DNA from: an uncultured delta proteobacterium
GTDB taxonomy: Bacteria > Myxococcota_A > Polyangia > Fen-1088
Reading direction: 5' to 3'
Assembly: GCA_963767925.1 (NCBI GenBank)
Contig: CAVYGB010000002.1
Location: 352,001-416,000, forward strand
DNA: 64,000 bases
Shown here piece after piece: positions 34,168 through 47,293 of this stretch. A model generated the notes under the pieces. The model searched no databases, was not told where the DNA came from, and worked only from the letters and a program-made list of their open reading frames with translations. Each line of letters opens with the position of its first letter. Within the stretch, counting starts at the first letter, position 1. The translations under genes were made by a program, and so were the position numbers.

Positions 34168-35200
34168 TCAGAACGGCCAGTAGCAGATCTGCTGCTGGCC
34201 GGCGCTGGCGTCGGTGGCGTAGGGGGAAAAGCCGTGGCGCCGGTTCTCGTGCGTAGACGGCGCGGGCCTTGCGCTGGTTGCGACAGCTCGCCCACGTAGT
34301 CCTCGACCCCGATGAAGAAAGGGCGCCCGCCCGGCTGCAGCTTCATGGCCTGCCAGGCGCGCAGCTCGCCCAGGGCCTGGTTGTCCCGCTCGGGCGCGAA
34401 GACCGACTCGTGGGCGATGCCGTCGAGGAGCTGGGGCAGCGGACCGGAGCTCGGTGACGCCCAGCCGGGTGATGTCGCTGGTGGCGTTTTGCATGACGAT
34501 GAGGTGATCGGGGTAGGCCTGCCGCAGGGCCGCCATCAGCTCGAGCCCACCCTGCCGGCAGCGATCACCGCAGGGGCCGTTGTTGGTCTTGTCCCCGTGC
34601 TCGACGATCTCCATGTTGTCGAGGAAGAAGCCGTCGACCCCGGCCCGCACCAGGCGCAGGGCCACGTGATCGACGATCAGCTTGGCGTAGTCGGTATTGG
34701 ACGGGTCCATCCAGATCTCGTCCGGGTAGCCGGCGTAGCGCCCGCGCTGGGCCCGCAGGTTCTGCTTGCAGGGCACGAAGCCGGGCGGCGACCTTCGTGA
34801 AATATTCGCGGAAGGCCTCGCACGAGCCGACGTTCAGGTAGCTGATCACCCGGTTGCGCCCGCCCGCCTTCAGCTCGGCGAGCTCGCCGGGCGTCCAGGC
34901 CGCCACCCCGGGGTCGGCGTCGATGTTGATGATGCGGAAGCGCTCGCGCCACCCGCCTGAGCGGCCGGACCTTCCGCGCCGGACCCGTAGATACGAGACC
35001 CAGGGCCCCGTCGCCGGAAACCCCCGCCCCGGCCCCTTCGGCCCCCGCCGCCGCCGATCGCGCCAGCTGCCGCCTCCTCCGCCTTGGCCTCCGGCTTGAT
35101 CTCCGTCTTCCCCTCCGACGTTGTCTCAGCCTTGGTCTCAGCCTTGTCCTCCGCCCTCCGCTCGCGCGCTTCCCCTCCGACGCCGCACCGGCGGATCATT
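34168..35200 (-). CDS. Stand-alone endo-alpha-1,4-polygalactosaminidase (GH114-like), frameshifted; start uncertain
   Basis: FRIINIDADP, VISYLNVGSCE, YAGYPDEIWMD, GVDGFFLDN, IVMQNA, DGIAHES, VEDY across frames. Confidence 0.78.
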
Positions 35201-35457
35201 CGTGGCCACTGCCTACCCCCGGCAGGCGCCCGCGCCAACGGCTCGACTCCCAGCTCGCTCAGAATGAACAGAAGGGCTTCAGCGAACGTCCGCACTCTCG
35301 GCTCCCCAGTTCTGCCACTTTCCAGGTTCGAAGGCGGGCTCCGCCTGCCGGAGAGACCCGCCGCCGAAGTCGACGCCAATTCGGACCTTACCTCGCCCTC
35401 TGTCCGGGGAGAGGGCCCGGGGGAGGGGGCGCGGTCCGCCGCGCCCTCTTGCCCCGC

Positions 35458-36836
35458 TCAGACTTGCTGCATGAATGTGTCGCACTCGAGGCCTTCGAGG
35501 CGACGGGAGATGATGTTGAGGCCGGAGACGCTGGTGATGGCGGTGGCCAGGGCGAACCCATAGCCGTAAAACGCCGGGCCCAGCGACTGGGTCATCAGGG
35601 TCAGCATGAGGTTGGACGTGGCGAACAGGATGCTCAGCCACAAGCACCGCGCCCCGCTGGTCCAGATAGAACAGCACGTTGAACACCGCCAGCATCAGCA
35701 CCTGGGTGCCGACGCCCGCCAGGTCGACGAAGAACAGCTGCCGGTAGAGCGGCGAGATCCCCATGACGTCGAGGATGCGGGGGCCGATGAGGAACAGCAG
35801 CAGCAGGGTCACCCCCTGCACCTTGAAGATGTCGCCCATGCCCTGGCGGGCGGCGCTCGACAGCGTCCCCTTGAGGCGCTGGATGTTGACCAGCGAATCG
35901 CCGCTGCGGACCGCGCTGATAAAAGGCGTCGTAGCTCTCGGCGAAGTCGGTCTCGACCCGCACCAGGAACACGGCCATCCCGGGCACGATCGACAGGTAG
36001 GCCAGGAAGATCGGGATGTCGTAGATGATCGAGGCGCGCAGCGGCCCGATCACCGGGTCGGAGACCAGCGGGTTGGCCCAGAAGGCGAACTTGTCGACCC
36101 AGACGCCCAGGTTGTAGAAAAACCCGGTGAAGCGCCAGGCTGAGGTAGCTCGCGCCGGCCGAGGAAGTCGAACGACACCAGGATGGCGCCCGCGCGGGTA
36201 GCGCCGGATCACCGCCAGGAACAGCAGGAACAGCAGCACGATCTGCCCGACCAGGAAGCCGGTCAGCAGGCCGGCCAGCCCCCGGCTGCGAGCGCACAGC
36301 GCCCCGCCCACCGAGGTGCCGTAGCCGATGAGGAAGCCGACCAGCACGCTCCGGTAGGCCTTGAGCCCCGACAGCAACACGACCACCACCCACAGGTCGC
36401 ACAGGGTGACGAAGCCGATGATCATGAGGGCCCGGTAGCTGAGCGGCCAGCCCCTCGAACCCGTACCAGACCACCGCGAAGGAGAAGGACCCCGCCACCA
36501 GCGTGGTCAGGGCCAGCGCCCCGAACAGGTTGGGCAGCACCTTCGACTCTTCCTTGGCGAACAGCCGGTCGGCGATGAACCGGGTGAACATGAGCTGCAG
36601 AAAGCCGGTCAGGATCAGCGACCCGGCCATCAGGTAGGTGATCGACACCAGGAACTGGCGCAGGGCCAGCGACTGCACCCGGGTCACGCTGAGGATGCCC
36701 GATCGCCCATGACGCCCAGGATCGACAGCACCCAGGGGCCCGAGCTGATCATCCCCGCATAGCCATACGCGCGCAGCAGCCCCCAGAAGCTGTTCGCGCG
36801 CATCAGCCTACGAAGCTCGAACCCGATTCCTGCCAC
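35458..36836 (-). CDS. pelG: Pel transporter PelG (frameshifted in this sequence)
   Basis: MAGIGFELR...YAGMISSGPW, QLMFTRFIADRLF, YNLGVWVDKF.FW, YDIPIFLAYLSIVPGMAVFLVRVETDF, VLFYLD. Confidence 0.9.
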
Positions 36837-38420
36837 CGGCAGCCTCCAGCGCGGTCCCGTAAACGCCACGGTAGGCGGCGAACATCTGATCGCGGGTGTA
36901 AAAACGCTGCACGCGCTCGAGCCCGGCGGCGCGGGCCCGGCCCCAGGTGACCGGGTCACGCAGCAGGGCCACGATGGCCGATGCGGTCTGCTCGGGCGCG
37001 GCGATCGGCACCACGCTGCCGGCGGGCCCCAGGGCCCGGTCCTCCGGCAGGCGCCCCTCGATCAGCTCGCGGCAGGAGCCCACGTCGGTGGCCACCACCG
37101 GCACGCCGCTGGCGAAGCTCTCGAGGATGACCAGGGGCAGGGCCTCGCTGATCGAGGTCAGCACGGTGAGGCCCAGCTTGGGGAAGATCTCGTCGGGCTT
37201 CTGGAAGCCGAGGAACTTCACCTTGCCCCCCAGGCCCAGCGCTGCCCACCAGCTCGTGGCACTCGCGGGCGTAGTCCCGGTCCTCGTCCTCCGGTCCCAC
37301 GATCCAGGCCTCCGCCTCGGGCATGGCCGCCACCACCGTGCGCATGGCCCGGATGAAGCCGCGCACGTCCTTGATCGGCACCACCCGCCCGATCAGGCCG
37401 ATCACCGGCGGCGGACCCGGTCGCCCTCCCGGCGGGGGGCCGGCGGAGAAGCGCTCGAGGTCGATGCCGTTGGGGATCACCCGGGTGCGGCCTCGGTCGG
37501 CGCCGTCGCTGATCTGGCGGTGCCCGGTTGCCCTCGTAGAGCGCGATGATGGGATCGGCGGCGGCGTAGGCCAGCCGGCCGATGCTCTCGAAGAAGCGGA
37601 GCCACAGCCGGCGCACGTAGGTGCGGTCCTCCTCGAGGCCGCTGCGCAGCTCCTCGGCGGCGTCCTTGATCCAGTCGGCGTGGGCCAGGTCGATCTTGCG
37701 TTCCTTGGTGTAGATGCCGTGTTCGGTGAGCACGTAGGGGCACTGGCGCCGGTGCTGCAGCAGCGAGCCCAGGAAGCCGGCGTACCCGGTCGAGACCGAG
37801 TGCAGCACCTTGAAGGGCGGCATCCGGGCGGCGATCTCGGCCATCTTGAACAGCGGGCCGTGCATCGTGCGCACGGTCCAGAAGTAGTCGACGAAGGAGG
37901 GTGAGGTGCAGAAGCGGTGGTAAGAGGCGCAGATCTGGTGCCAGGTCTCGTCGCTGTGCAGGAAGTCGCGCCAGCCGATGCCGTCGGGCGGTCTCGATCT
38001 CCGCCACCGCCGCCCGGATGCCGTCCGAGATGGCCCGCCCCCGGATCGCGGAGCTCGTCGTGCAGGCGGGCGAGCTGCTCGAAGCTCTGGACCTTGCTCT
38101 TGCGCGAGCTGCCCCTCCGGCGGGGCGAGGGCTGCTCGGCCAGGTAGTGGGTCTCGACGTGCACCAGGTTGGGGGGCAGCGTGTAGCGGATGGGCGAGTA
38201 GTCCTCGGGCGACGATCCGATGAACACGACGCCGAAGGTCAGCTCGGGCAGGCCGGAGATGATCTCGTGCACCCAGCTCGACACGCCGCCCGCTGACGAA
38301 GGGGTAGGTCCCCTCGAGCAGCAGGCCGACGTCGGCCCCCTCCCCGGCCGGCAGCCGGGGCAAGGTGGCGACCAGCTTCTTGCTGCCGGTTCTGGTGAGG
38401 CTCTTGATGGAAGGTTTCAC
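36808..38420 (-). CDS. pelF: GT4 glycosyltransferase PelF (frameshifted in this sequence)
   Basis: LLLEGTYPFVSG.VSSWVH, HSVSTGYAG, TEHGIYTKERKID, GRVVPIKDV, LTSISEALPLVILE. Confidence 0.92.
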
Positions 38421-39422
38421 GACCACTGCTCCACGATGGGGGCCAGGCCGGGCCGCAGGCGGGCCGACCGGGCGAACACGGCCACCTGCCGGCGGACCTC
38501 GAGCGGGCGCGCGCTCGAGGTAGTCGGCCTCGGCCAGGTAGGGGCCGACCACCTCGATGGGCAGGCCCCGGCGCACCGACTCCTCCAGCATGGCCCGCGC
38601 CTCCTCGGGCCGGCCCAGCATCAGCAGCGCCCGCCCGGCCAGCAGCGCCATGCGCGGGCTGCCGTTCTTGTTCCGCCGGACCTCCGAGGAGTGCCAGAGC
38701 ACCTGATCGAGCGAGAAGGCCAGCAGCTCGCCCTCGACGAGGCCGCCGTAGACCAGCTCCCAGTACAGCTCGGCCAGGCGGCCGTGGGTGGTCGGCGGCA
38801 GGCGCGGGCGCTGCTGCCCCTCGCCGCCCGCGGTGCCGAGCAGCTCCTGGATCTGGGTCTGGATGTCGCGCTCCTTGCGCTCGAGGACGGCGTAGGCCAG
38901 CAGGCGCACGTCGTCGACCGGGTCGCGCAGGGCCAGGCGCAGGAGGTGCATCGCCGACCGCTCGGGCAGGCTGCGGCAGGCCAGCACCACCCGCAGGCGG
39001 CTCTCCGGATCGGGGCTGTGGCGCAAGATCCCCTCGAGCGAGCCAGGGCCGTAGCGCCGGTCGAGCTCGGTGTTGAGGGGGTTGCCGGGCAGGCTGGGGG
39101 GCATCGGTCTCGCGCAGCCCCGCCCGCTTGCGCTCGATCGGGCTGCGGGCGCGCACGGCCAGCATGGCGGCCAGCCCGGGCAGCCCGAACACCGGGAAGA
39201 AGGTGGCGAACCCCCCGATCAAGCATGGCGTCGGGGAAACGCGGCCGCCGGCCCTGGGGAGTCACGGCGAAGACCAGGGCGGCGGCGCCGCCGAGGGCGC
39301 CCAGCAGGTACAGGCCCACCGCCGTGTTGGGCACCTCGACGGCCCCCACCCCGAGGATCACCGCCTCGAGCTGGACGACCGCCGCCGCCAGCACGACGAA
39401 CCCGACCAGGAAAGATCTCATG
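38417..39422 (-). CDS. pelE: PelE-like membrane/TPR protein (frameshifted in this sequence)
   Basis: N-terminal TMs; LRLALRDPVDDVRLLAY, LAELYWELVYGGLVEG, PYLAE; stop overlaps the pelF GTG. Confidence 0.85.
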
Positions 39423-40794
39423 CCGAGGGCGCGGGTCTGCTTGGGTTTGGCCAGCAGCTTGAGCTGGGTCAAGGCGGTGTCGCTGGCCGAGTCCTGGAGG
39501 TCGACCGCCTGCAAGAGCCGGATCCCCCGCTCGCTCAGCGAGACGCGCAGCTTGGTCTGCACCGCCTTGTCGAGCCGCTTGAGGTAGGACTCCGCCCCCT
39601 TGCCGTCGGTGAGGGGCAGCAGCACGAACAGCCGCAGGCCGCCGTCGGGGGCCAGGGCCAGGCAGGCCTCGTCGATCCCCCGCCGCTCCTCCAGCACCCG
39701 GGGCAGGAGCTCGCTGGCCCGGGCGGCGTTGCTGACCGAGAAGACAACCAGGCTGGCGGGCACGCCGTGGCGGCGGGCGTCCACCAGGCAGCGGCGCACC
39801 CGCTGCTCGAACCGCTGGGTCGAGCGCGGGTCGTAGCTCTTGACGGTGGCCCCGAACTCCAGCGTGTCGGCCAGGGCCCCGGCCATCAGGGCGAACAGGC
39901 TCAGGTTCTCCGGGGTGAAGGCGTAAAAGGGCAGCTCCTGGATGGCGAGGATGGCCCACACCCGGCCGTCGACGTCGACCAGGGGGACCGCCGCCGCCAG
40001 GCTGGTCGTCATCTCGCCGATGGCCTCGCTGCCGTCGCGGCCCATGTGGGCCAGGCTGGCCACCCGCCGCGACTTCAGGGCGGCGCCCACCAGCGGGTCG
40101 GAGGCGATGCGGTCGGAGACCCGCCCCAGGGTGGCGCAGGGGGGCTCGACGCCCCCGGCTGGTCACCGGCAGCAGGGCGGCGGTCTGCACCTGGCCGAAG
40201 GCCTGGAACACCTCGAGCACGAAGGGGGCCCGCGTCTGCAGGGCCGAGTCGGACCCCGGGCGCGCGCAGCAACTCCGCCCGCAGGGTCGAGATGGCCGTG
40301 CGCAGGTTGCCGCGGGCGGCGGCGCTGCGCTCCTCGAGCCCGTCGTGCGAGACCTTGAGGAGCTGGTAGTTGCGGGCGAACTCGTCGAAGCGTTGCCGCT
40401 GGTGGGTGTAAAGGCCGGCGATGCGCCGGGCCTGGGTGGCCCACAGGTGGGCGAACTGCCCGGCCAGCATGCCGGTCAGCAGGAGGGCGGCGATGAGCTG
40501 GGCGGGCGGGAAGGTGCCCGGCACCGGCAGCACCTGCGTGCGCCAGGCCCACAGCAGGGCGAAGGAGAGGGCGGCCGCGCAGCCGAACCCGGCCATGAAG
40601 CCGTGGCGCAGTCCCGCCAGCATCGGCGCCAGCAGCGACCAGGAGACCGAGGACTGAACGAAGAAGGGATCGACCGCGTTGGTCCAGCGGCCCAGCAACG
40701 GAACGGCGGCGCACAGGAGCAGCGACTCGAGCGCCATCACCCAGGGCTGGACCGGGCGTACGCGTTCGACGAGGTCGTCTTCGTTCCGTCTCAT
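39419..40794 (-). CDS. pelD: PelD-like c-di-GMP receptor (TM-GAF-degenerate GGDEF), frameshifted
   Basis: DPFF....W.LLAP.L.GLRHG, LKVSHD.LE, GAF, RGID (RxxD I-site), VLLPLTD..GAESYL.RL; ATG overlaps the pelB stop. Confidence 0.85.
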
Positions 40795-43700
40795 CTGAAC
40801 CACCTAAGCGTGTAATTGAGATTCGCGCCCGCGTAGCGCTCCCCGGCGGCACTGCGGAGGTCGGTGTAGTAGAAACCGGTGAGCGCGAGTTCCTGGTGTT
40901 GCGCAAAAACCAGACCGAGCCCGGCGTGCACGGCATACGAGGCCTTGCGAGCCGGCCACATGTGCCCGGCCCAGCCGTCGAGATAATACCTCAAGGACAC
41001 GTGTGGACCGCGGGCATCCCCGACATCTCCATGGGTCGACCCGATGGAGAGGCCGACGCCGACATTCGAATATTCGAGCGCGAGCAGGTCGTCCGGATCC
41101 TCCCGTTGCGTCAAATAGGGCATCAGATCGTTGGGGATGCCCGGGCCCACCGGCGGCACCGAGTTGACGAAGGCGTCGGCGCGCGGGCGGATGAAGGCGC
41201 TGCCCACCGGCAGCCGGAAGGCGACCGCGCCCCGGGTCGCCAGCTCCGAGGTCAGGAAGTTGCGTGAGCGGGTGGAGAAGCGGGCCCAGGTCCCACCGAC
41301 CTCCAGCTCGAAGCGGCGGCCCAGGCCCAGGGTCATGTCGAGGTCGAGGCCGTCGCGCACCCCCGCCACCCGCAGCAGCGGCGTGTGGTTGGGGATGTCG
41401 TTGAAGGCGGCCTGGCCGCGCAGCTCGAAGCGCCCGTCGCGCATGCTGATGAGCTGCTCGAGCTCGGCGTAGGGGCGGTAGCCGTCGGGCAGGAACTCGG
41501 CCCCCGCCCGCAAGGTTGTCTCGCCGATGCGCTCGCGCAGCTTGGCGCTGGCTCGCATCCGCTGCTCGCGGCGGCCCCGGCTCAGCAGCTTGTCGTCGGG
41601 GGGCAAGGCCCACAGCTCGGTGGCCCCCGCCTCGAACCCGAACAGCAGGGCACCCGCCCGCAGCTCCAGCCGGGCGCCGGCGGCGCGCACCTCGAGCGGC
41701 CCCATCTGATCGACGCCCCCCCAGAACCAGGCCCCTGACAGGTGCTGCTCGCGCAGGTCGCGCACGTCGCTCACCAGGGCGGCGGCGTCCTCGGAGGCGA
41801 TCAGGTTCTCGTCGCGGGTCAGGCCCGCCGACTCGAGCAGACGCCAGGCGTCCCAGTCTCGCCCCAGCTCGCGCAGGGCGGCCACCCGCATCGGCAGGGA
41901 GATGGCCCGGCCGTAGGCGGTGAGGCGGGCCTCGACCGCGGCCAGGTCCCGCCGCTCGATGGCCTCCTCGAGCTGCTCGTCGGGGGTCAGGGGGCGGCCG
42001 CTGGCGGCCCGCTCGCGGGCCCGGGCCTCGCGCATCAGGGCCCGGAAGCGCGCGGACTTGGGCGCGTCGCCGATCAGGGCGTAGGCGTCGGCCAGCAGCC
42101 ACCAGGTCTCCTCGTTGCGCTCGACCTCGGGGCCCCAGGCGTCGAGGGCCCGCTTGGCCATGCCCCGGTCCTGCACGTGCACCGACAGGGTCAGCCACTC
42201 GCTGAGCGCGTCTTCGGCCCGGGGGTCGACCCTCACCACCCGCATGAAGTCGCGCTCGGCGTCGGCGGCCCGGTTCTCGTGGGCGGCGAGCTGGGCCTTC
42301 TGGAACCAGAAGTTGCTCTCCTGGGCGAACGACTCTTCCTTGCCCTTGACCTTGTCGAACAGGGCCCGGGCCTTGGCCCGGTTGCCCGACTTGAGCGCCA
42401 GGTCGACCGCGACGACGAGGAAGTTGACCTGACCGGTGCGCTCGTAGGCCTCGGCCGCGATGTTGACCGCCTCGGCCCGGCGGTTGCTGCCGTCGAGCGA
42501 GCGGACCAGGCGCTCGCCGATGTCCTCGCGCTTCTGGGTCCGCCAGAGGGCGGTGTAGGCCTCGGCGGCCAGCACGTGCTCCTCCAGGCGCCAGGCCAGA
42601 TCGCCGAGCAGCAGGAAGTAGCCCCGGTCGGTCTCGCGGGCCTGCCCGCGCAGGGCCACCAGCCGGGTCAGGGCCGCCTCGGGGCGCTGCAGGCGCCACA
42701 GGAGCTGGGCCTGCCGGACGCTGTCGTCGAGGGTCATGGCCTTGAGGCGGCTGAGCTGCTCGTGGCAGGCCAGCGCCCGCTCGAGCTCGTTCGTGTTCTC
42801 GTACAGGCGGGCCAGGCGGCTCCAGTATTCGGGCCGCTCGGCGAAGTTGAAGCGCAGCGAATCGAGGGCCTGGATGGCCCGCTCGGGCAGGCCCTTGACC
42901 TCGAGGGCGTCGGCGAGGGCGACCAGCTCGACGAGCTGCTGGTCGGCGGCGGCCGAGGCGCGCGAGGACTGCACCTGGGCCAGGGCGCGGACCGGCCGCC
43001 GGCGCGGCAGGGGCGCGCCGAGCACCCCCGCGCTGGCGCGGGCGGCGCGCGCGGTGGCGCGGGCGTGGCGCAGCGGGGCCCGGCAGGCGCCCGGGGCGTG
43101 ACCCGGGTGGCGGGCGCAGGTGGCGGCGGTGCGCGGGAGGGCGGCGGCCGCGCGCGGCGGCCGGCGCACCCGCCCGAGATCGTCGGCCGGCCGGCGCCGG
43201 GAGGGGACCCCGCCGCCGGGCAGCGCGCGCGGGCGCAGGGGCGGGGCGCTCTCGATGCGCCGGGGGGGCGGCACGCCGTCCAGCGAGGGGGCGTTCATGG
43301 CAGGGGCGGACATGCGGCGGACCCGCCGCAGGCTCAGCTCCAGCATCTCGATCTCGCGGTTGCTGTCGGACAGCGCGCGCGACAGCTCGAGCGCCTTGAG
43401 CCGCGCGTCCTCGGCGCCCCGCTGGGCCAGCCAGGACCAATGTTTGAGCGACTCCTCCGGCTCGCCCGACCAGCGGGCGAGCTGGGCGGTCTGCCGGCGC
43501 AGGGCCGAGTCGTCGGGGTAGCGCTCGAGCAGGAGCTTGGCCATCCGCAGGGCGCCCTCGGGATCGCCAGCTTTGAGGAGGATGTCGGACTGCTGGCGCA
43601 GGGCCTCGTCGCTCGATCCAGCCGCCACAACCCGCTGCTCGCCCCAGCGGCGGGCGCTGCCGAGATCGCCGCCCGCCACCGCCATGCGGATCGCCAGCCC

Positions 43701-44636
43701 GAGCAGCTCGACGTCGTCGGGGAACCGCTCGATCAGGGGGCGGGCCACCGCCAGGCCCGACTTGCCTTCGTTGGCCGCGTTGAGGGCCCGGATCGCCAGG
43801 CGGGCCAGCCGCGGCCCGTCGGGGAGGTCGGCCTCCTTGGGGTCCTTGCTCGGTTCCTTGCCCGTGGCCGCGCCGGCCGCGGCGCCGGCCTGCAGGTTGG
43901 TGACGCCCTTGCCCGGGTCCTTGCCGGGATCGCTACCCGGATCCTTGGCGGGAGGGCCCGCTTCCTTGCCCTTGCCCTGCCCCTTGTCCGCCGCCAGGGT
44001 GGCCGCCTCGGCGTAGATGCGGGCCGCCGTGCCAGGTTTGCCGGCCGCCTCGCTCCAGCGCGCCGCCTTCTCCAGCCAGAACAGCCGGCGGGCCGGCTCG
44101 AGGGTGGCCAGGCGCCGGTAGGCCTGGGCCGCCTCGGCGGGATCCCCGATCGACAGGACGAAGTCGGCCAGCTCGGCCAGCTCGGCCGGCTTGCGGGTGC
44201 GGGGGATCAGGCGGCGCGCCGCCGCCTGGGTCTCGCGCATGAGGCCGGCGCGCTCGGGCTCGTCCTCTTGCATGGCCGCCAGCCGGGCCCGGTCGAGGCT
44301 GAGCGCCACCACCTCGGCGCGGGAGGCCATCTCCTCGTTGCCCGGGCGCAGCAGGGCCAGCGTCTCGTGGGCCTCTTCCAGCCGGCCGAGGGCCTTCTGC
44401 TGTTGCACGAGCAGCAGGCGCGCCTCCGCGTCCTCGGGGTGAGCCCGCAGCAGCATGCGCAGATAGGCCATGGACAGCTCGTCCGGACGGGCCAGGTGGA
44501 CCGGGTTCTCGAAGTCGCTTCCGGGGAACAGCAGCACCAGCAGGGCAGAGACGATGCTGGTCAGCACCAGGAGCTCCGGCCAGGAGAGGAAGGGCCCGCG
44601 GCGGCGGCCCAGATCGACGCCCGCGATCAACGGCAT
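40791..44636 (-). CDS. pelB: PelB-like TPR + outer-membrane beta-barrel protein
   Basis: PDELSMAYLRMLLRAHP N-terminus, long TPR region, alternating beta-strand C-terminus ending YTLRWFR; between pelA and pelD. Confidence 0.85.
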   Translation of the reverse strand: MPLIAGVDLGRRRGPFLSWPELLVLTSIVSALLVLLFPGSDFENPVHLARPDELSMAYLRMLLRAHPEDAEARLLLVQQQKALGRLEEAHETLALLRPGNEEMASRAEVVALSLDRARLAAMQEDEPERAGLMRETQAAARRLIPRTRKPAELAELADFVLSIGDPAEAAQAYRRLATLEPARRLFWLEKAARWSEAAGKPGTAARIYAEAATLAADKGQGKGKEAGPPAKDPGSDPGKDPGKGVTNLQAGAAAGAATGKEPSKDPKEADLPDGPRLARLAIRALNAANEGKSGLAVARPLIERFPDDVELLGLAIRMAVAGGDLGSARRWGEQRVVAAGSSDEALRQQSDILLKAGDPEGALRMAKLLLERYPDDSALRRQTAQLARWSGEPEESLKHWSWLAQRGAEDARLKALELSRALSDSNREIEMLELSLRRVRRMSAPAMNAPSLDGVPPPRRIESAPPLRPRALPGGGVPSRRRPADDLGRVRRPPRAAAALPRTAATCARHPGHAPGACRAPLRHARATARAARASAGVLGAPLPRRRPVRALAQVQSSRASAAADQQLVELVALADALEVKGLPERAIQALDSLRFNFAERPEYWSRLARLYENTNELERALACHEQLSRLKAMTLDDSVRQAQLLWRLQRPEAALTRLVALRGQARETDRGYFLLLGDLAWRLEEHVLAAEAYTALWRTQKREDIGERLVRSLDGSNRRAEAVNIAAEAYERTGQVNFLVVAVDLALKSGNRAKARALFDKVKGKEESFAQESNFWFQKAQLAAHENRAADAERDFMRVVRVDPRAEDALSEWLTLSVHVQDRGMAKRALDAWGPEVERNEETWWLLADAYALIGDAPKSARFRALMREARARERAASGRPLTPDEQLEEAIERRDLAAVEARLTAYGRAISLPMRVAALRELGRDWDAWRLLESAGLTRDENLIASEDAAALVSDVRDLREQHLSGAWFWGGVDQMGPLEVRAAGARLELRAGALLFGFEAGATELWALPPDDKLLSRGRREQRMRASAKLRERIGETTLRAGAEFLPDGYRPYAELEQLISMRDGRFELRGQAAFNDIPNHTPLLRVAGVRDGLDLDMTLGLGRRFELEVGGTWARFSTRSRNFLTSELATRGAVAFRLPVGSAFIRPRADAFVNSVPPVGPGIPNDLMPYLTQREDPDDLLALEYSNVGVGLSIGSTHGDVGDARGPHVSLRYYLDGWAGHMWPARKASYAVHAGLGLVFAQHQELALTGFYYTDLRSAAGERYAGANLNYTLRWFR

Positions 44637-47293
44637 GGCAGCGATACCTCACGCGTGTCGTTGGAAGGGAAAGACAGACGAACCGTACGGCGGGCCACGT
44701 CCACCCGCACGCGGCTGGCGCCAGCTACCCCCTCACCGGAGGGGCAACCCCCGATGGTGGCGTTGACCGGCATGTGGCCCTTCAATCGGAAGGTGACCTT
44801 GGATCTGTCGCGCGTCCAGGAGACGACGGCGGCGTTGGCCGACACGAGGTGGGGCAAGGTCGGCTTCTGCGAGGTCAGGGCCAGGGTGACCTCGGGCTCG
44901 CCCCCGAAGGCGACGTAGCGGCCCGGGCCGGTGTCGGTCACACCCGCCACGCCGACCGAGTTGTTGAAATCGGGCCAGCCCAGCCGCCGGTCGAGGCGCA
45001 CGGTCCGCAGCGATCCCAGGCCGCGCAGCTCCCAGGCGCCATCGATGCGCCGGGCGAACGTCACCCGGTGGTAGTCCTCGACCTTGGCAACCATTTCACT
45101 GACAACGATCGGCAGGGCCTCCTGCTCGAGCGCGTACTTGTAAACCTCGTGCAGCGCGGTTATTCCCGCCGGTTTGGTGCCCGAATAGAAGTGGTAGTAG
45201 ATGTTGATCGGCTTGAGCCGCCGGGGGGCCTCGCTGAAGCGGAACCCGTCGACCACGTCGCGGAAACCGTAAAAGCGGGTGGTCCACTCCGAGGTGTACA
45301 CGTTGTCGTTGTGGGCCTGGGCGTAGACGTGCAGCATGCCATCGACGTAGCGGCCCAGCGAGGGGACCTGCGAGAGGGTGGGGATCTCCCGGGGGTTCTC
45401 GGCGTTGAAGCCGTTCATGTTGGCGAGCCTGAGGTTGGTGACCTCGCGCATGGCGTCCGCGGCCGGCATGGCGTCGCCGCTCCAGAGGAAGACCGCGGCC
45501 GGCTTTTCCTTGGGGGCCAGCCGATCGTTGATGTAGGCGATCGAGCCGGCCACCTCCCGCTGGGCGGAGTAGCGGTAGCCGGGGATGTCCATGTTGACCG
45601 AGTCGGCCGACTCGGCGGCGCGCGTGCGCTCGCCCTTGGAGGCGCGGCCCCAGTCGAAGGGGTGGCTGTACGAGTGGCTGGCCACCTCGACGTTGGGCAG
45701 CTTGAAGATGGCCCGGGCGATCTGCTCGAGCTTGGGGGACTCGTCCTTGTATTTTCCGGCCGGACCGATCTCCCCCTCGATGATCGAGACGGTGTGGGGG
45801 AGATCGTAGCGCTGCAGGAACTCGCGCAAGATGACCTCGCCGGCGTAGGCCCGCCCGGGCATCTCCGCCCGGCTGACGAAGCTGTCCCCGTCGATGTGGA
45901 TGAACAGGAGGCGCCGGCCGCTCTCGGTGGTGGCGTCGGGGGCGGGGATGGGCTCGAGGTCGAGGGCCCGGGTCAGGAAGGCGAAGGGATCGAGGATCCA
46001 GCGGATGCGGTTCTCGAGCCCGTTGTCGAGGACGTAGGGCTCGAGGGCCAGGCCGCCCCAGCTCCCGGTGATCACGGGGGTGAGGCGCTGGCCCCGGCTG
46101 TCGCGCAGCTCGATGTGGACCTCGCCCTCGCGGGCCTGCCAGTTGGGCAGGTCGCGGGCCAGCGGCGAGGGGGTGGCCTCGAAGCCCATCACCACGCTCG
46201 TGCCGGCGATCGAGACCGGGGGGACGATCGGCTTGTTCGACTCGACCAGGCCCATGCGGGCCAGCATGGTCGAGGAGGGGGGCAGGCCGGGCTTGCCGAA
46301 CATGGCGACGCGCAGGCCGCTGTTGATCTGGGCCAGCAGCCAGGACTCGTAGGCCCGGGGCTGGGGCATGTCGTCGTCGCTGTACCAGCTCGCGATGCCG
46401 GCGTAGCGGGCGCTGAGATCCCCCTGCGGCAGCTTGCTGTTGCGCACGTCGAGGTAGTCGGCGACGTAGCCGTGGTACTCGATGGGGACGGCCAGCAGCC
46501 GGTGGGCGACGGTCTCGGCCATGTTCGCCTCCTCCTGCCCGTCGTAGAGCACGAGGACCCGCCGGGGCACGAACTCGCGCAGGCCCACCCCGAGGCTGCG
46601 TCCGCCCACGGTGACCCAGGGGATGAAGCCCCGCTCGGCCAGGGTGCGGGCGATGCCCCGGGCCTGCTCGCGCTGTCCGCCGGGCATCCGCTCGAGCACG
46701 ATGAAAGGCAGCTTCGAGCTGCCGCGCACCCGCACCAGGTTGGCCAGCCGGCGCACCCCCTCGATGTCGTCGAGCACGCCAGGGGCAGCGGTGACCTCGC
46801 CGGGGCGGGGCAGCCGTTCGGTGAAGATGCCGTCGGTGACGAAGCCCGAGATCGAGCCCGCCACCGCGCCGAGCCGGTCGAGGTCGCCCCAGTAGTAGAT
46901 CTGGGCGGAGGGGTTGCGCCGGCGCGCTTCCTTGAGCAGGGCCTCGCTGGCCTCCACCCGGCGGGGGTCGCGGGCGTCGAACAGGAAGGCGGTGAAGCCG
47001 CGCTGCTGAAGCCTGGTCAACAGGGCCAGCGCGGCGGGGCCGCCGGCGGCGACGTCGGTGGAGCTGATGCGGGCGATGGACAGGGTGCCGCTGCGGCGGA
47101 GGGCGGTCAGCTCGGGATCGCTGACCCTGGCCGGGTCGAGCACCACCTCCTGGAACCAGCCCAGCGCCTCGAGGGGCAGGCGGTCGCCCGAATAGAAGGC
47201 GATCGATCGGGCCCAGGCGGCCGAGGGCCCGAGGAGCCCGCACAGCACCACCAGCAGCCCCGCCAGCGCGTGACCGGCGCGCAGGCTCGTCAC
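44627..47293 (-). CDS. pelA: PelA-like protein: degenerate N-terminal hydrolase domain + CE4-type deacetylase
   Basis: SIAFYSG, GFIPWV, VPRRVLVLYD, RWILDPFAFL, PAPDATTESGRR, HIDGD, ASHSYSHPF.W, PRRLKPINIYYHFYSGTK; start approximate. Confidence 0.9.
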   Translation of the reverse strand: MTSLRAGHALAGLLVVLCGLLGPSAAWARSIAFYSGDRLPLEALGWFQEVVLDPARVSDPELTALRRSGTLSIARISSTDVAAGGPAALALLTRLQQRGFTAFLFDARDPRRVEASEALLKEARRRNPSAQIYYWGDLDRLGAVAGSISGFVTDGIFTERLPRPGEVTAAPGVLDDIEGVRRLANLVRVRGSSKLPFIVLERMPGGQREQARGIARTLAERGFIPWVTVGGRSLGVGLREFVPRRVLVLYDGQEEANMAETVAHRLLAVPIEYHGYVADYLDVRNSKLPQGDLSARYAGIASWYSDDDMPQPRAYESWLLAQINSGLRVAMFGKPGLPPSSTMLARMGLVESNKPIVPPVSIAGTSVVMGFEATPSPLARDLPNWQAREGEVHIELRDSRGQRLTPVITGSWGGLALEPYVLDNGLENRIRWILDPFAFLTRALDLEPIPAPDATTESGRRLLFIHIDGDSFVSRAEMPGRAYAGEVILREFLQRYDLPHTVSIIEGEIGPAGKYKDESPKLEQIARAIFKLPNVEVASHSYSHPFDWGRASKGERTRAAESADSVNMDIPGYRYSAQREVAGSIAYINDRLAPKEKPAAVFLWSGDAMPAADAMREVTNLRLANMNGFNAENPREIPTLSQVPSLGRYVDGMLHVYAQAHNDNVYTSEWTTRFYGFRDVVDGFRFSEAPRRLKPINIYYHFYSGTKPAGITALHEVYKYALEQEALPIVVSEMVAKVEDYHRVTFARRIDGAWELRGLGSLRTVRLDRRLGWPDFNNSVGVAGVTDTGPGRYVAFGGEPEVTLALTSQKPTLPHLVSANAAVVSWTRDRSKVTFRLKGHMPVNATIGGCPSGEGVAGASRVRVDVARRTVRLSFPSNDTREVSLPCR

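Follow-up and report, generated by a model that had tools for sequence, protein, structure and literature searches.

Introduction

The pelABCDEFG operon of Pseudomonas aeruginosa encodes a PelA deacetylase, a PelB composed of a TPR scaffold and a barrel, a PelD with GAF and GGDEF domains and an RxxD site, PelE, the GT4 glycosyltransferase PelF, and PelG. All of these are shared, in the same relative order, by a gene cluster that we analysed in a 64,000-nucleotide stretch of DNA from an uncultured delta proteobacterium of the class Polyangia (GenBank assembly GCA_963767925.1, contig CAVYGB010000002.1). This whole stretch, hereafter the window, corresponds to positions 352001-416000 of contig C2 in the source genome, which we designate G000, and positions given below are window positions unless a contig is named. 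In comparison with P. aeruginosa, the window is without PelC, the GH166 domain of its PelA is short by approximately 57 residues and carries a residue other than Glu in the column of Glu-218, and an extra GH114-family gene is present. We conclude that the window probably holds the second of two pel loci in a Polyangia (Myxococcota) genome and represents a distinct, conserved PelC-less lineage, and that the frame breaks found in several of its genes are likely due to assembly error.

A related layout has been tabulated for Stigmatella aurantiaca DW4/3-1, for which six contiguous genes (PelA, B, D, E, F and G) are listed with 38 nucleotides between pelB and pelD (PMC7112194, Bundalovic-Torma et al. 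2020, supplementary file 9, row 547). This example, known here from the table row alone, resembles the window in that no PelC is listed, although the species belongs to a different Myxococcota class and no GH114 gene is listed for it. The parts of the article drawn on here touch on duplication, on the gain and loss of loci and on divergence among outer-membrane components, and name PelC once in the main text; we found in them no comment on the missing PelC in S. aurantiaca. In excerpts of two further reports, the Bacillus cereus pelDEA(DA)FG operon is like the window in that its PelA deacetylase has no active hydrolase domain and PelC is absent (PMC7890745, PMC7112168). However, Gram-positive pel carriers are devoid of both an outer membrane and PelB, whereas the window retains a full PelB barrel.

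Early surveys of pel loci, as the same excerpts describe them, were queried with PelC (PMC7112168, PMC7890745) and were therefore unable to detect PelC-less loci. Our full-text literature searches for pel loci without pelC returned no relevant paper, and the literature retrieved on pel genes in Myxococc* or Stigmatella included none discussing such a layout. As far as these searches reach, the PelC-less layout has been tabulated, yet has been neither described nor studied.

Gene organization of the locus

The source assembly comprises 9.34 Mb in 13 contigs, is 83.8% complete and has approximately 71% G+C. Its pel cluster occupies positions 34168 to 47293 of the minus strand, in the order pelA-pelB-pelD-pelE-pelF-pelG followed by a gene for a GH114-family hydrolase. 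An earlier note on this DNA, prepared from the sequence alone, had proposed this order, a myxobacterial origin and the absence of a linked pelC. All three proposals are borne out: the order by family scans, by the structure match of PelA and by orthologues; the origin by the closest relatives, which are titled as metagenome-assembled genomes (MAGs) of Myxococcota or Polyangia; and the absence of pelC by a pelB stop codon that overlaps the ATG of pelD (ATGA, 40791-40794), together with a sole PelC match in the genome that falls outside the window.

The junction reads ...TGGTTCAGATGAGACGG, with the PelB C-terminus ending in ...LRWFR and the pelD product opening with MRRNEDD. Because the stop of one gene overlaps the start of the next, there is no room for pelC, and our PelC profile found no match between pelB and pelD at this locus, its match in G000 being on contig C10 alone. 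The note had further placed this junction outside a noisy stretch of sequence. That stretch is real: the 25 frame breaks we mapped in it span positions 34252-40260, while pelA has none and pelB has one, at a fragment edge.

The first gene, pelA (44627..47293), likely starts with a GTG at 47293 that is followed by a signal-peptide-like stretch, and its product is assigned, by its match to the solved PelA structure 9cgy_A, as a deacetylase of the periplasm whose N-terminal GH166-like domain is degenerate. The start of pelB (40791..44636) overlaps the end of pelA, and the encoded protein combines a TPR scaffold (TPR_15, 82 bits, among TPR family matches) with a C-terminal outer-membrane beta-barrel (PF24604, 87.3 bits, cut-off 31). 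The pelD gene (39419..40794) specifies a cyclic di-GMP (c-di-GMP) receptor with a GAF domain and a degenerate GGDEF domain (PF16963, E 1.4e-18). An intact orthologue matches the solved PelD structure 4dmz (E 7.5e-36) with its RxxD site, which we take to be the c-di-GMP-binding site of PelD, reading RGID, and the same RGID motif occurs in the window open reading frame at 38621-40090.

The next gene, pelE (approximately 38417..39421), is assigned to an inner-membrane TPR protein by weak TPR matches and by its identity to the PelE of a genome from the same genus (G001). It is followed by pelF (36808..38414), whose GT4 glycosyltransferase product is recognized in three pieces by the equivalog model NF038011 (240, 205 and 178 bits, cut-off 100), and by pelG (35458..36836), which encodes an inner-membrane exporter-like protein likewise recognized in three pieces by PF16933 (68, 179 and 54 bits, cut-off 29; profile positions 57-128, 136-305 and 332-398). 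Last is the stand-alone GH114-family glycoside hydrolase gene (34168..35200), with a mature domain at 34171-35041 and an uncertain N-terminal limit.

Distribution of the PelC-less layout

The same arrangement recurs among relatives. In G001, one locus (L016) holds pelA and the start of pelB and another (L035) holds the rest of pelB, pelD, pelE, pelF, pelG and the GH114-like gene, and the end of pelB (...LRWFR) overlaps the start of pelD as it does in the window. The order is also the same, again with intact single-frame genes, in G012 (L017 and L036), and in genera g9 (G009, G024, G042 and G043) and g2 (G080, G083 and G089) it is GH114-pelA-B-D-E-F-G. In total, a pelB-pelD junction without PelC was observed in 10 distinct genomes, all of them Myxococcota or Polyangia MAGs, with the two genes either overlapping or separated by 30-57 nucleotides. 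This lineage differs from the Pseudomonas pelABCDEFG operon by the absence of PelC, by a decayed GH166-type domain in PelA and by a secreted GH114-family hydrolase at one end.

A scan with a GH114-like profile, using one genome per species, yielded 48 relevant loci (L045-L092), several of which are the same contigs as in the numbered genomes. The junction is visible and without PelC in eight of these, PelC is present in five (including Labilithrix luteola DSM 27648), pel genes occur without coverage of the junction in six, and the GH114-like gene stands alone in the remaining 29.

Several variants of the layout were also seen. In genus g9, the GH114-like gene lies upstream of pelA rather than after pelG, and the gene that does follow pelG (L018:7052-7816, L019:7315-8070) encodes a methyltransferase-like protein of 252-255 residues with a weak N6_N4_Mtase match. 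Three loci (L051, L059 and L092; Labilithrix) are split, with pelA and a gene for a short PelB-like TPR protein on one strand and, divergently on the other, the GH114-like gene, pelB, pelC, pelD, pelE, pelF and pelG. Other PelC-less layouts are present in fully complete Polyangia genomes (L124 in G202 and L125 in G273), one with the order pelD-E-F-G-pelA-pelB and the other with pelB convergent with pelD-E-F-G.

Neither Pfam nor NCBIfam contains a model for PelC, and the true PelC encoded on contig C10 gave no matches in these collections. For this reason, we built a PelC profile from seven PelC sequences. Among the 89 genomes of the family, the C10 PelC used as a single query found a match in three (G000, G006 and G014), whereas the profile gave matches in five at E<=0.01, strong in those same three alone. 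The two marginal matches are in G077, where the match of 18.7 bits contains an internal TGA, and in G012 (18.8 bits over 42 residues). No PelC was found, by single query or by profile, in G009 (96% complete), G080 (94%), G043 (91%) or G001 (86%).

PelG was matched in 37 of 301 genomes sampled from the class, at true-PelG level in 22 and by lower-scoring PelG-like proteins only in 15. The 22 genomes with true PelG include 15 with PelC and seven in which none was found (G080, G009, G024, G273, G292, G202 and G154). Among 301 genomes sampled from the phylum, PelG was detected at E<=1e-80 in 24; PelC was strong in two of these, weak in one, where it lies on a contig other than that of pelG, and not found in 21. 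We inspected four of these PelG loci, from other Myxococcota families, as candidates for the same layout and rejected them, since they are much more divergent and none of 24 scanned open reading frames carried the PF24604 barrel. As a separate matter, the lower PF16933 tier in the 15 class genomes scores approximately 220-265 bits, against 340-510 for true PelG, which points to a distinct family of PelG-like exporters in Polyangia.

The description of the operon as atypical in the earlier note therefore needs qualification, and one finding that the note had named as counting against it, a gene order already common among described pel loci, applies in part. Described systems such as that of P. 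aeruginosa do differ from it, yet the gene order is present in 10 genomes, seven of the 22 PelG-bearing class genomes are without PelC, and a PelC-less order is tabulated for S. aurantiaca; in Myxococcota genomes, the PelC-less order is not rare but common. The note had also proposed that this system exports its polymer without a linked PelC. That proposal fares well among relatives, in that genomes carrying this locus type have no detectable PelC anywhere, and less well in the source genome, which has a PelC on contig C10. Because relatives up to 96% complete are without PelC, we infer that PelC-independent export is the best reading of the comparative data.

PelA and the GH114-family hydrolase

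The 967-residue open reading frame of window PelA has no Pfam or NCBIfam match, yet the protein is a full-length PelA, matching 9cgy_A over residues 115-869 (E 6.7e-158). According to the part of the source available here, P. aeruginosa PelA requires D160 and E218 for its hydrolase activity and uses D528, D530, H600, H604 and H761 for deacetylation (PMC12022489). The window motifs HIDGD, HSYSH and YYHFYSG align with the corresponding deacetylase stretches of 9cgy_A. The hydrolase barrel is missing the approximately 57 residues mentioned above and has Asp at the columns of both D160 and E218, and the GH114 model PF03537 has no match in the protein at E<=1. The reading of this PelA as having a degenerate hydrolase domain, made from the sequence at the outset, is upheld by alignments, with the deacetylase motifs intact.

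Alignments of 15 and then of 23 PelA proteins (24 rows, with the L091 fragment blank over the N-terminal region) extend this pattern. Relative to the full barrel, every PelA from a PelC-less locus is short by approximately 45 residues in the segment that leads from the second strand to the LD strand, and by approximately 12 more beyond the LD strand. In this type, the E218 column is Asp in g1 and g12, Gly in g9, Thr or Ser in g2 and Glu in two lone paralogues. In contrast, PelA proteins from PelC-bearing Polyangia loci have a full barrel with FLDxLDS and VES, even when they lie beside a GH114-like gene. The exception is the PelA of contig C10, whose barrel is complete but has Gly at both catalytic columns (D160 and E218). 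PF03537 matches the canonical-locus PelA proteins of G014 (47.8 bits) and C10 (29.1 bits), whereas five PelA proteins that are lone or come from PelC-less loci gave no match to it at E<=1.

We built a tree from the C-terminal 640 residues, thereby excluding the hydrolase domain (24 rows, midpoint root only). The 10 proteins from PelC-less loci and three lone paralogues form one clade with a Shimodaira-Hasegawa-like approximate likelihood ratio test (SH-aLRT) value of 98, and this clade is sister to the canonical pair from C10 and G018 (SH-aLRT 96). Since these proteins constitute a single clade with shared deletions, the loss of PelC and the decay of the hydrolase domain coincide in one lineage.

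G000 encodes two additional PelA paralogues that belong to the PelC-less type. One (C8:36884-39535, L024) is 77% identical to window PelA and stands alone beside a ThuA-like gene. The other (C9:70641-73301, L025) is approximately 46% identical, is followed by a PelB-like C-terminal region and has an orthologue in G001 (L023).

The last gene of the window locus was missed in the genome-wide scan, and its best piece scores 19.1 bits with PF03537 (cut-off 27) and 24.5 bits with GHL15. The copy falls below the PF03537 cut-off because the gene is broken, and intact orthologues score 46.5, 36.2 and 47.3 bits with the same model. A profile of 10 orthologues matches the GH114 TIM-barrel structure 9ep5_A (E 4.7e-14) and TM1410 (E of approximately 2e-10). 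Across these orthologues D140 of an LD motif is nearly invariant and E210 of a DG..E motif is invariant, and the two align with the Asp and Glu of 9ep5 and TM1410. We take these columns to be the GH114 catalytic pair. The probable assignment of this gene to the GH114 family thus rests on intact orthologues, which resemble known GH114 TIM-barrel hydrolases (9ep5; TM1410, 2aam/9euz) in Pfam model, structure matches and conserved Asp and Glu columns.

Orthologues and synteny agree with the earlier view of a separate GH114-family gene, which proves to be a conserved part of the locus. A GH114-like gene is also present in related PelC-bearing loci. Close relatives of the enzyme (47-60% identity) were noted in Burkholderiales, Abditibacteriota and Armatimonadota, among them relatives at 50-57% identity in Pandoraea, Burkholderia, Janthinobacterium, Imbroritus, Abditibacteriota and Armatimonadota. 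By tblastn, no pel genes were found within 10 kb to either side of GH114 relatives at L052, L053, L056, L057, L061, L063, L066, L072, L073, L075, L076, L078, L081, L084 or L090, and a GH114-like locus of Bdellovibrio (L082) has no pel genes in the 10 kb upstream.

A second, canonical pel locus

The source genome carries another pel locus on contig C10 (approximately 1038.9-1052.0 kb; L005 and L026), in which pelA, pelB, an open reading frame of 185 codons, pelD, pelE/F and pelG are intact. Its PelF is full-length (750 bits to the PelF model). The 185-residue protein is a true PelC, matching P. aeruginosa PelC 9h80_C with an E-value of 5.7e-42 and the structures 5t10 and 5t11 at approximately 1e-33, and it is the only PelC in G000 according to tblastn and the PelC profile. 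The earlier note had regarded a pelC homologue elsewhere in the genome as a finding that would count against its proposal, and such a homologue is indeed present in this canonical locus.

Every pel gene of the window has a paralogue on C10, with identities of 39% for PelA, 38-45% for PelD, up to 67% for PelF and 47-59% for PelG. The C10 locus differs from that of the window in that PelC is placed between pelB and pelD, all reading frames are intact and the PelA barrel is full-length. Its neighbours include an FHA-domain gene and a gene whose product joins a Ser/Thr kinase to a response-regulator domain.

Given this arrangement, the window locus might borrow PelC in trans from C10, such that export would still depend on PelC. 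A true PelC is available for this purpose, and the tetranucleotide compositions of C2 and C10 correlate at 0.9985, which is weak evidence but consistent with the two contigs belonging to one genome. However, no PelC is detectable, with a single sequence or a profile, in G001 and the other carriers of the PelC-less locus, and window PelB is just 26-29% identical to the PelB of C10. On balance, we consider the sharing of PelC between the two loci to be unlikely.

Frame breaks in the window

Frame breaks were mapped by frameshift-aware alignment of intact orthologues from G001 to the window. There are none in pelA (871 codons), one in pelB (the fragment edge noted above), two in pelD (near 40260 and 40160), three in pelE (near 39223, 39099 and 38510), seven in pelF, seven in pelG and six in the GH114-like gene. 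Among the 25 breaks from pelD to the GH114-like gene, 22 consist of a single additional base and three of two, and these alignments revealed no stop codons in the broken genes.

These breaks could be real, in which case the window locus would be a decaying, non-functional duplicate whose work is done by the canonical pelABCDEFG locus of C10. The presence of 25 breaks across five consecutive genes, and of an intact paralogous locus in the same genome, would fit such a history. Nevertheless, almost all of the breaks are +1 insertions, with neither stop codons nor large deletions, and they spare pelA and pelB, which belong to the same operon. Read-through identity to the G001 orthologues is 79-90% across the five broken genes (80.4% for pelE, 86.4% for pelF, 89.9% for pelG and 79.2% for the GH114-like gene), whereas the values for pelA (76.5%) and for the single-frame C-terminal part of pelB (74.6%) are both lower. 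In G001 itself, all of the genes are single-frame. The modest completeness of the source assembly (83.8%), despite its having just 13 contigs, also fits with noise.

Independent sequence data also bear on this question. A search of public runs returned two soil metagenomes only, each with 5-6% of the sampled words, and their contigs cover the stretch in part. At six breaks (35916/35919, 37245, 37413, 37447, 37521 and 38510/38511), these contigs omit bases located no more than 6 nucleotides away, and at the pelE break (38510) they have a one-base deletion. The sole listed insertion or deletion outside the noisy stretch is an in-frame 3-nucleotide difference at 43048. In addition, a codon-phase-switch scan showed that the window is noisy in two other places (18-22 kb and 62-64 kb), where unrelated genes are broken in like manner, each over two or three frames. 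Between 18.2 and 21.4 kb, the sequences split in this way are those for CheR, a HisKA domain and, in three pieces, the receiver domain of a response regulator, and at 62-64 kb an AcrB-family transporter is affected.

Because the breaks are nearly all +1 insertions without stops, are absent from G001 and have counterparts in unrelated genes, we conclude that patchy local assembly error is the most likely source of all 25, and that the operon is therefore probably intact in the organism. The decay of a redundant copy is, in our view, improbable.

Discussion

The mechanism that we propose for this PelC-less lineage is drawn from the protein families that it encodes. PelF would polymerise a chain rich in N-acetylgalactosamine under the control of the c-di-GMP receptor PelD, and PelD, PelE and PelG would move this chain across the inner membrane. 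The intact deacetylase domain of PelA would then render the chain cationic, and its export would proceed through the TPR scaffold and beta-barrel of PelB, with no PelC ring involved. Trimming or release may have passed from the dead hydrolase domain of PelA to the separate GH114-family enzyme. Other synthase-dependent systems offer a precedent: in the part of the article cited here, the cellulose, PNAG and alginate systems are described as exporting their polymers through a module that combines TPRs with a barrel and has no ring resembling PelC (PMC12141448), and a self-sufficient PelB is therefore plausible by analogy.

Several observations weigh against this interpretation. In the portion of the P. 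aeruginosa work drawn on here, PelC is called essential and is treated as a hallmark of Pel systems in Gram-negative bacteria (PMC12141448). G000 itself encodes a PelC on C10, so that use in trans is conceivable, and the apparent absence of PelC from relatives is limited by the 78-96% completeness of these MAGs. The metagenome contigs that omit bases at some of the frame breaks are partial and come from near or related strains rather than from the source reads, which leaves room for strain-specific frameshifts. An alignment of the C-terminal halves of PelB from eight PelC-less and seven PelC-bearing loci revealed no clean group-specific insertion or deletion. Moreover, the production and export of a polymer by any PelC-less pel locus is a prediction made from genes alone.

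The final 600 residues of PelB were also compared with solved structures. Window PelB had no match and C10 PelB had repeat-protein matches only; with no usable match, neither could be mapped onto the PelBC structure by sequence search. It is very unlikely that a non-homologous replacement for the PelC ring exists, be it a different lipoprotein with its gene elsewhere or some property of PelB, since nothing direct favours this beyond the strong divergence of PelB sequences between the two locus types, whereas the locus contains no extra conserved gene, its spaces are filled by pelD, pelE, pelF and pelG, and PelB lengths are alike in both types.

If the window indeed represents a distinct PelC-less lineage, the existence of a conserved diderm clade with a full PelB barrel and no PelC raises the question of what the PelC ring contributes and whether PelB can act alone. 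The decay of the PelA hydrolase domain together with the loss of PelC, in loci that carry a separate GH114-family gene, suggests that polymer trimming has been reorganised in the PelC-less type. G000, in which both types of machine are encoded side by side, would provide a natural comparison between them. The practical value of these findings is modest, given that carriers of the exact layout are all uncultured MAGs, although a related layout is tabulated, in the table row noted above, for the culturable S. aurantiaca.

In our judgement, there is an even chance that, in many myxobacteria, PelB by itself exports a cationic Pel-type polymer and neither a PelC ring nor a substitute for it takes part, with PelC being an accessory in some diderm machines and its loss being joined to the loss of the PelA hydrolase and to a reliance on the GH114-family enzyme. 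If true, PelC would have to be seen as an accessory to some diderm Pel machines rather than as their universal hallmark.

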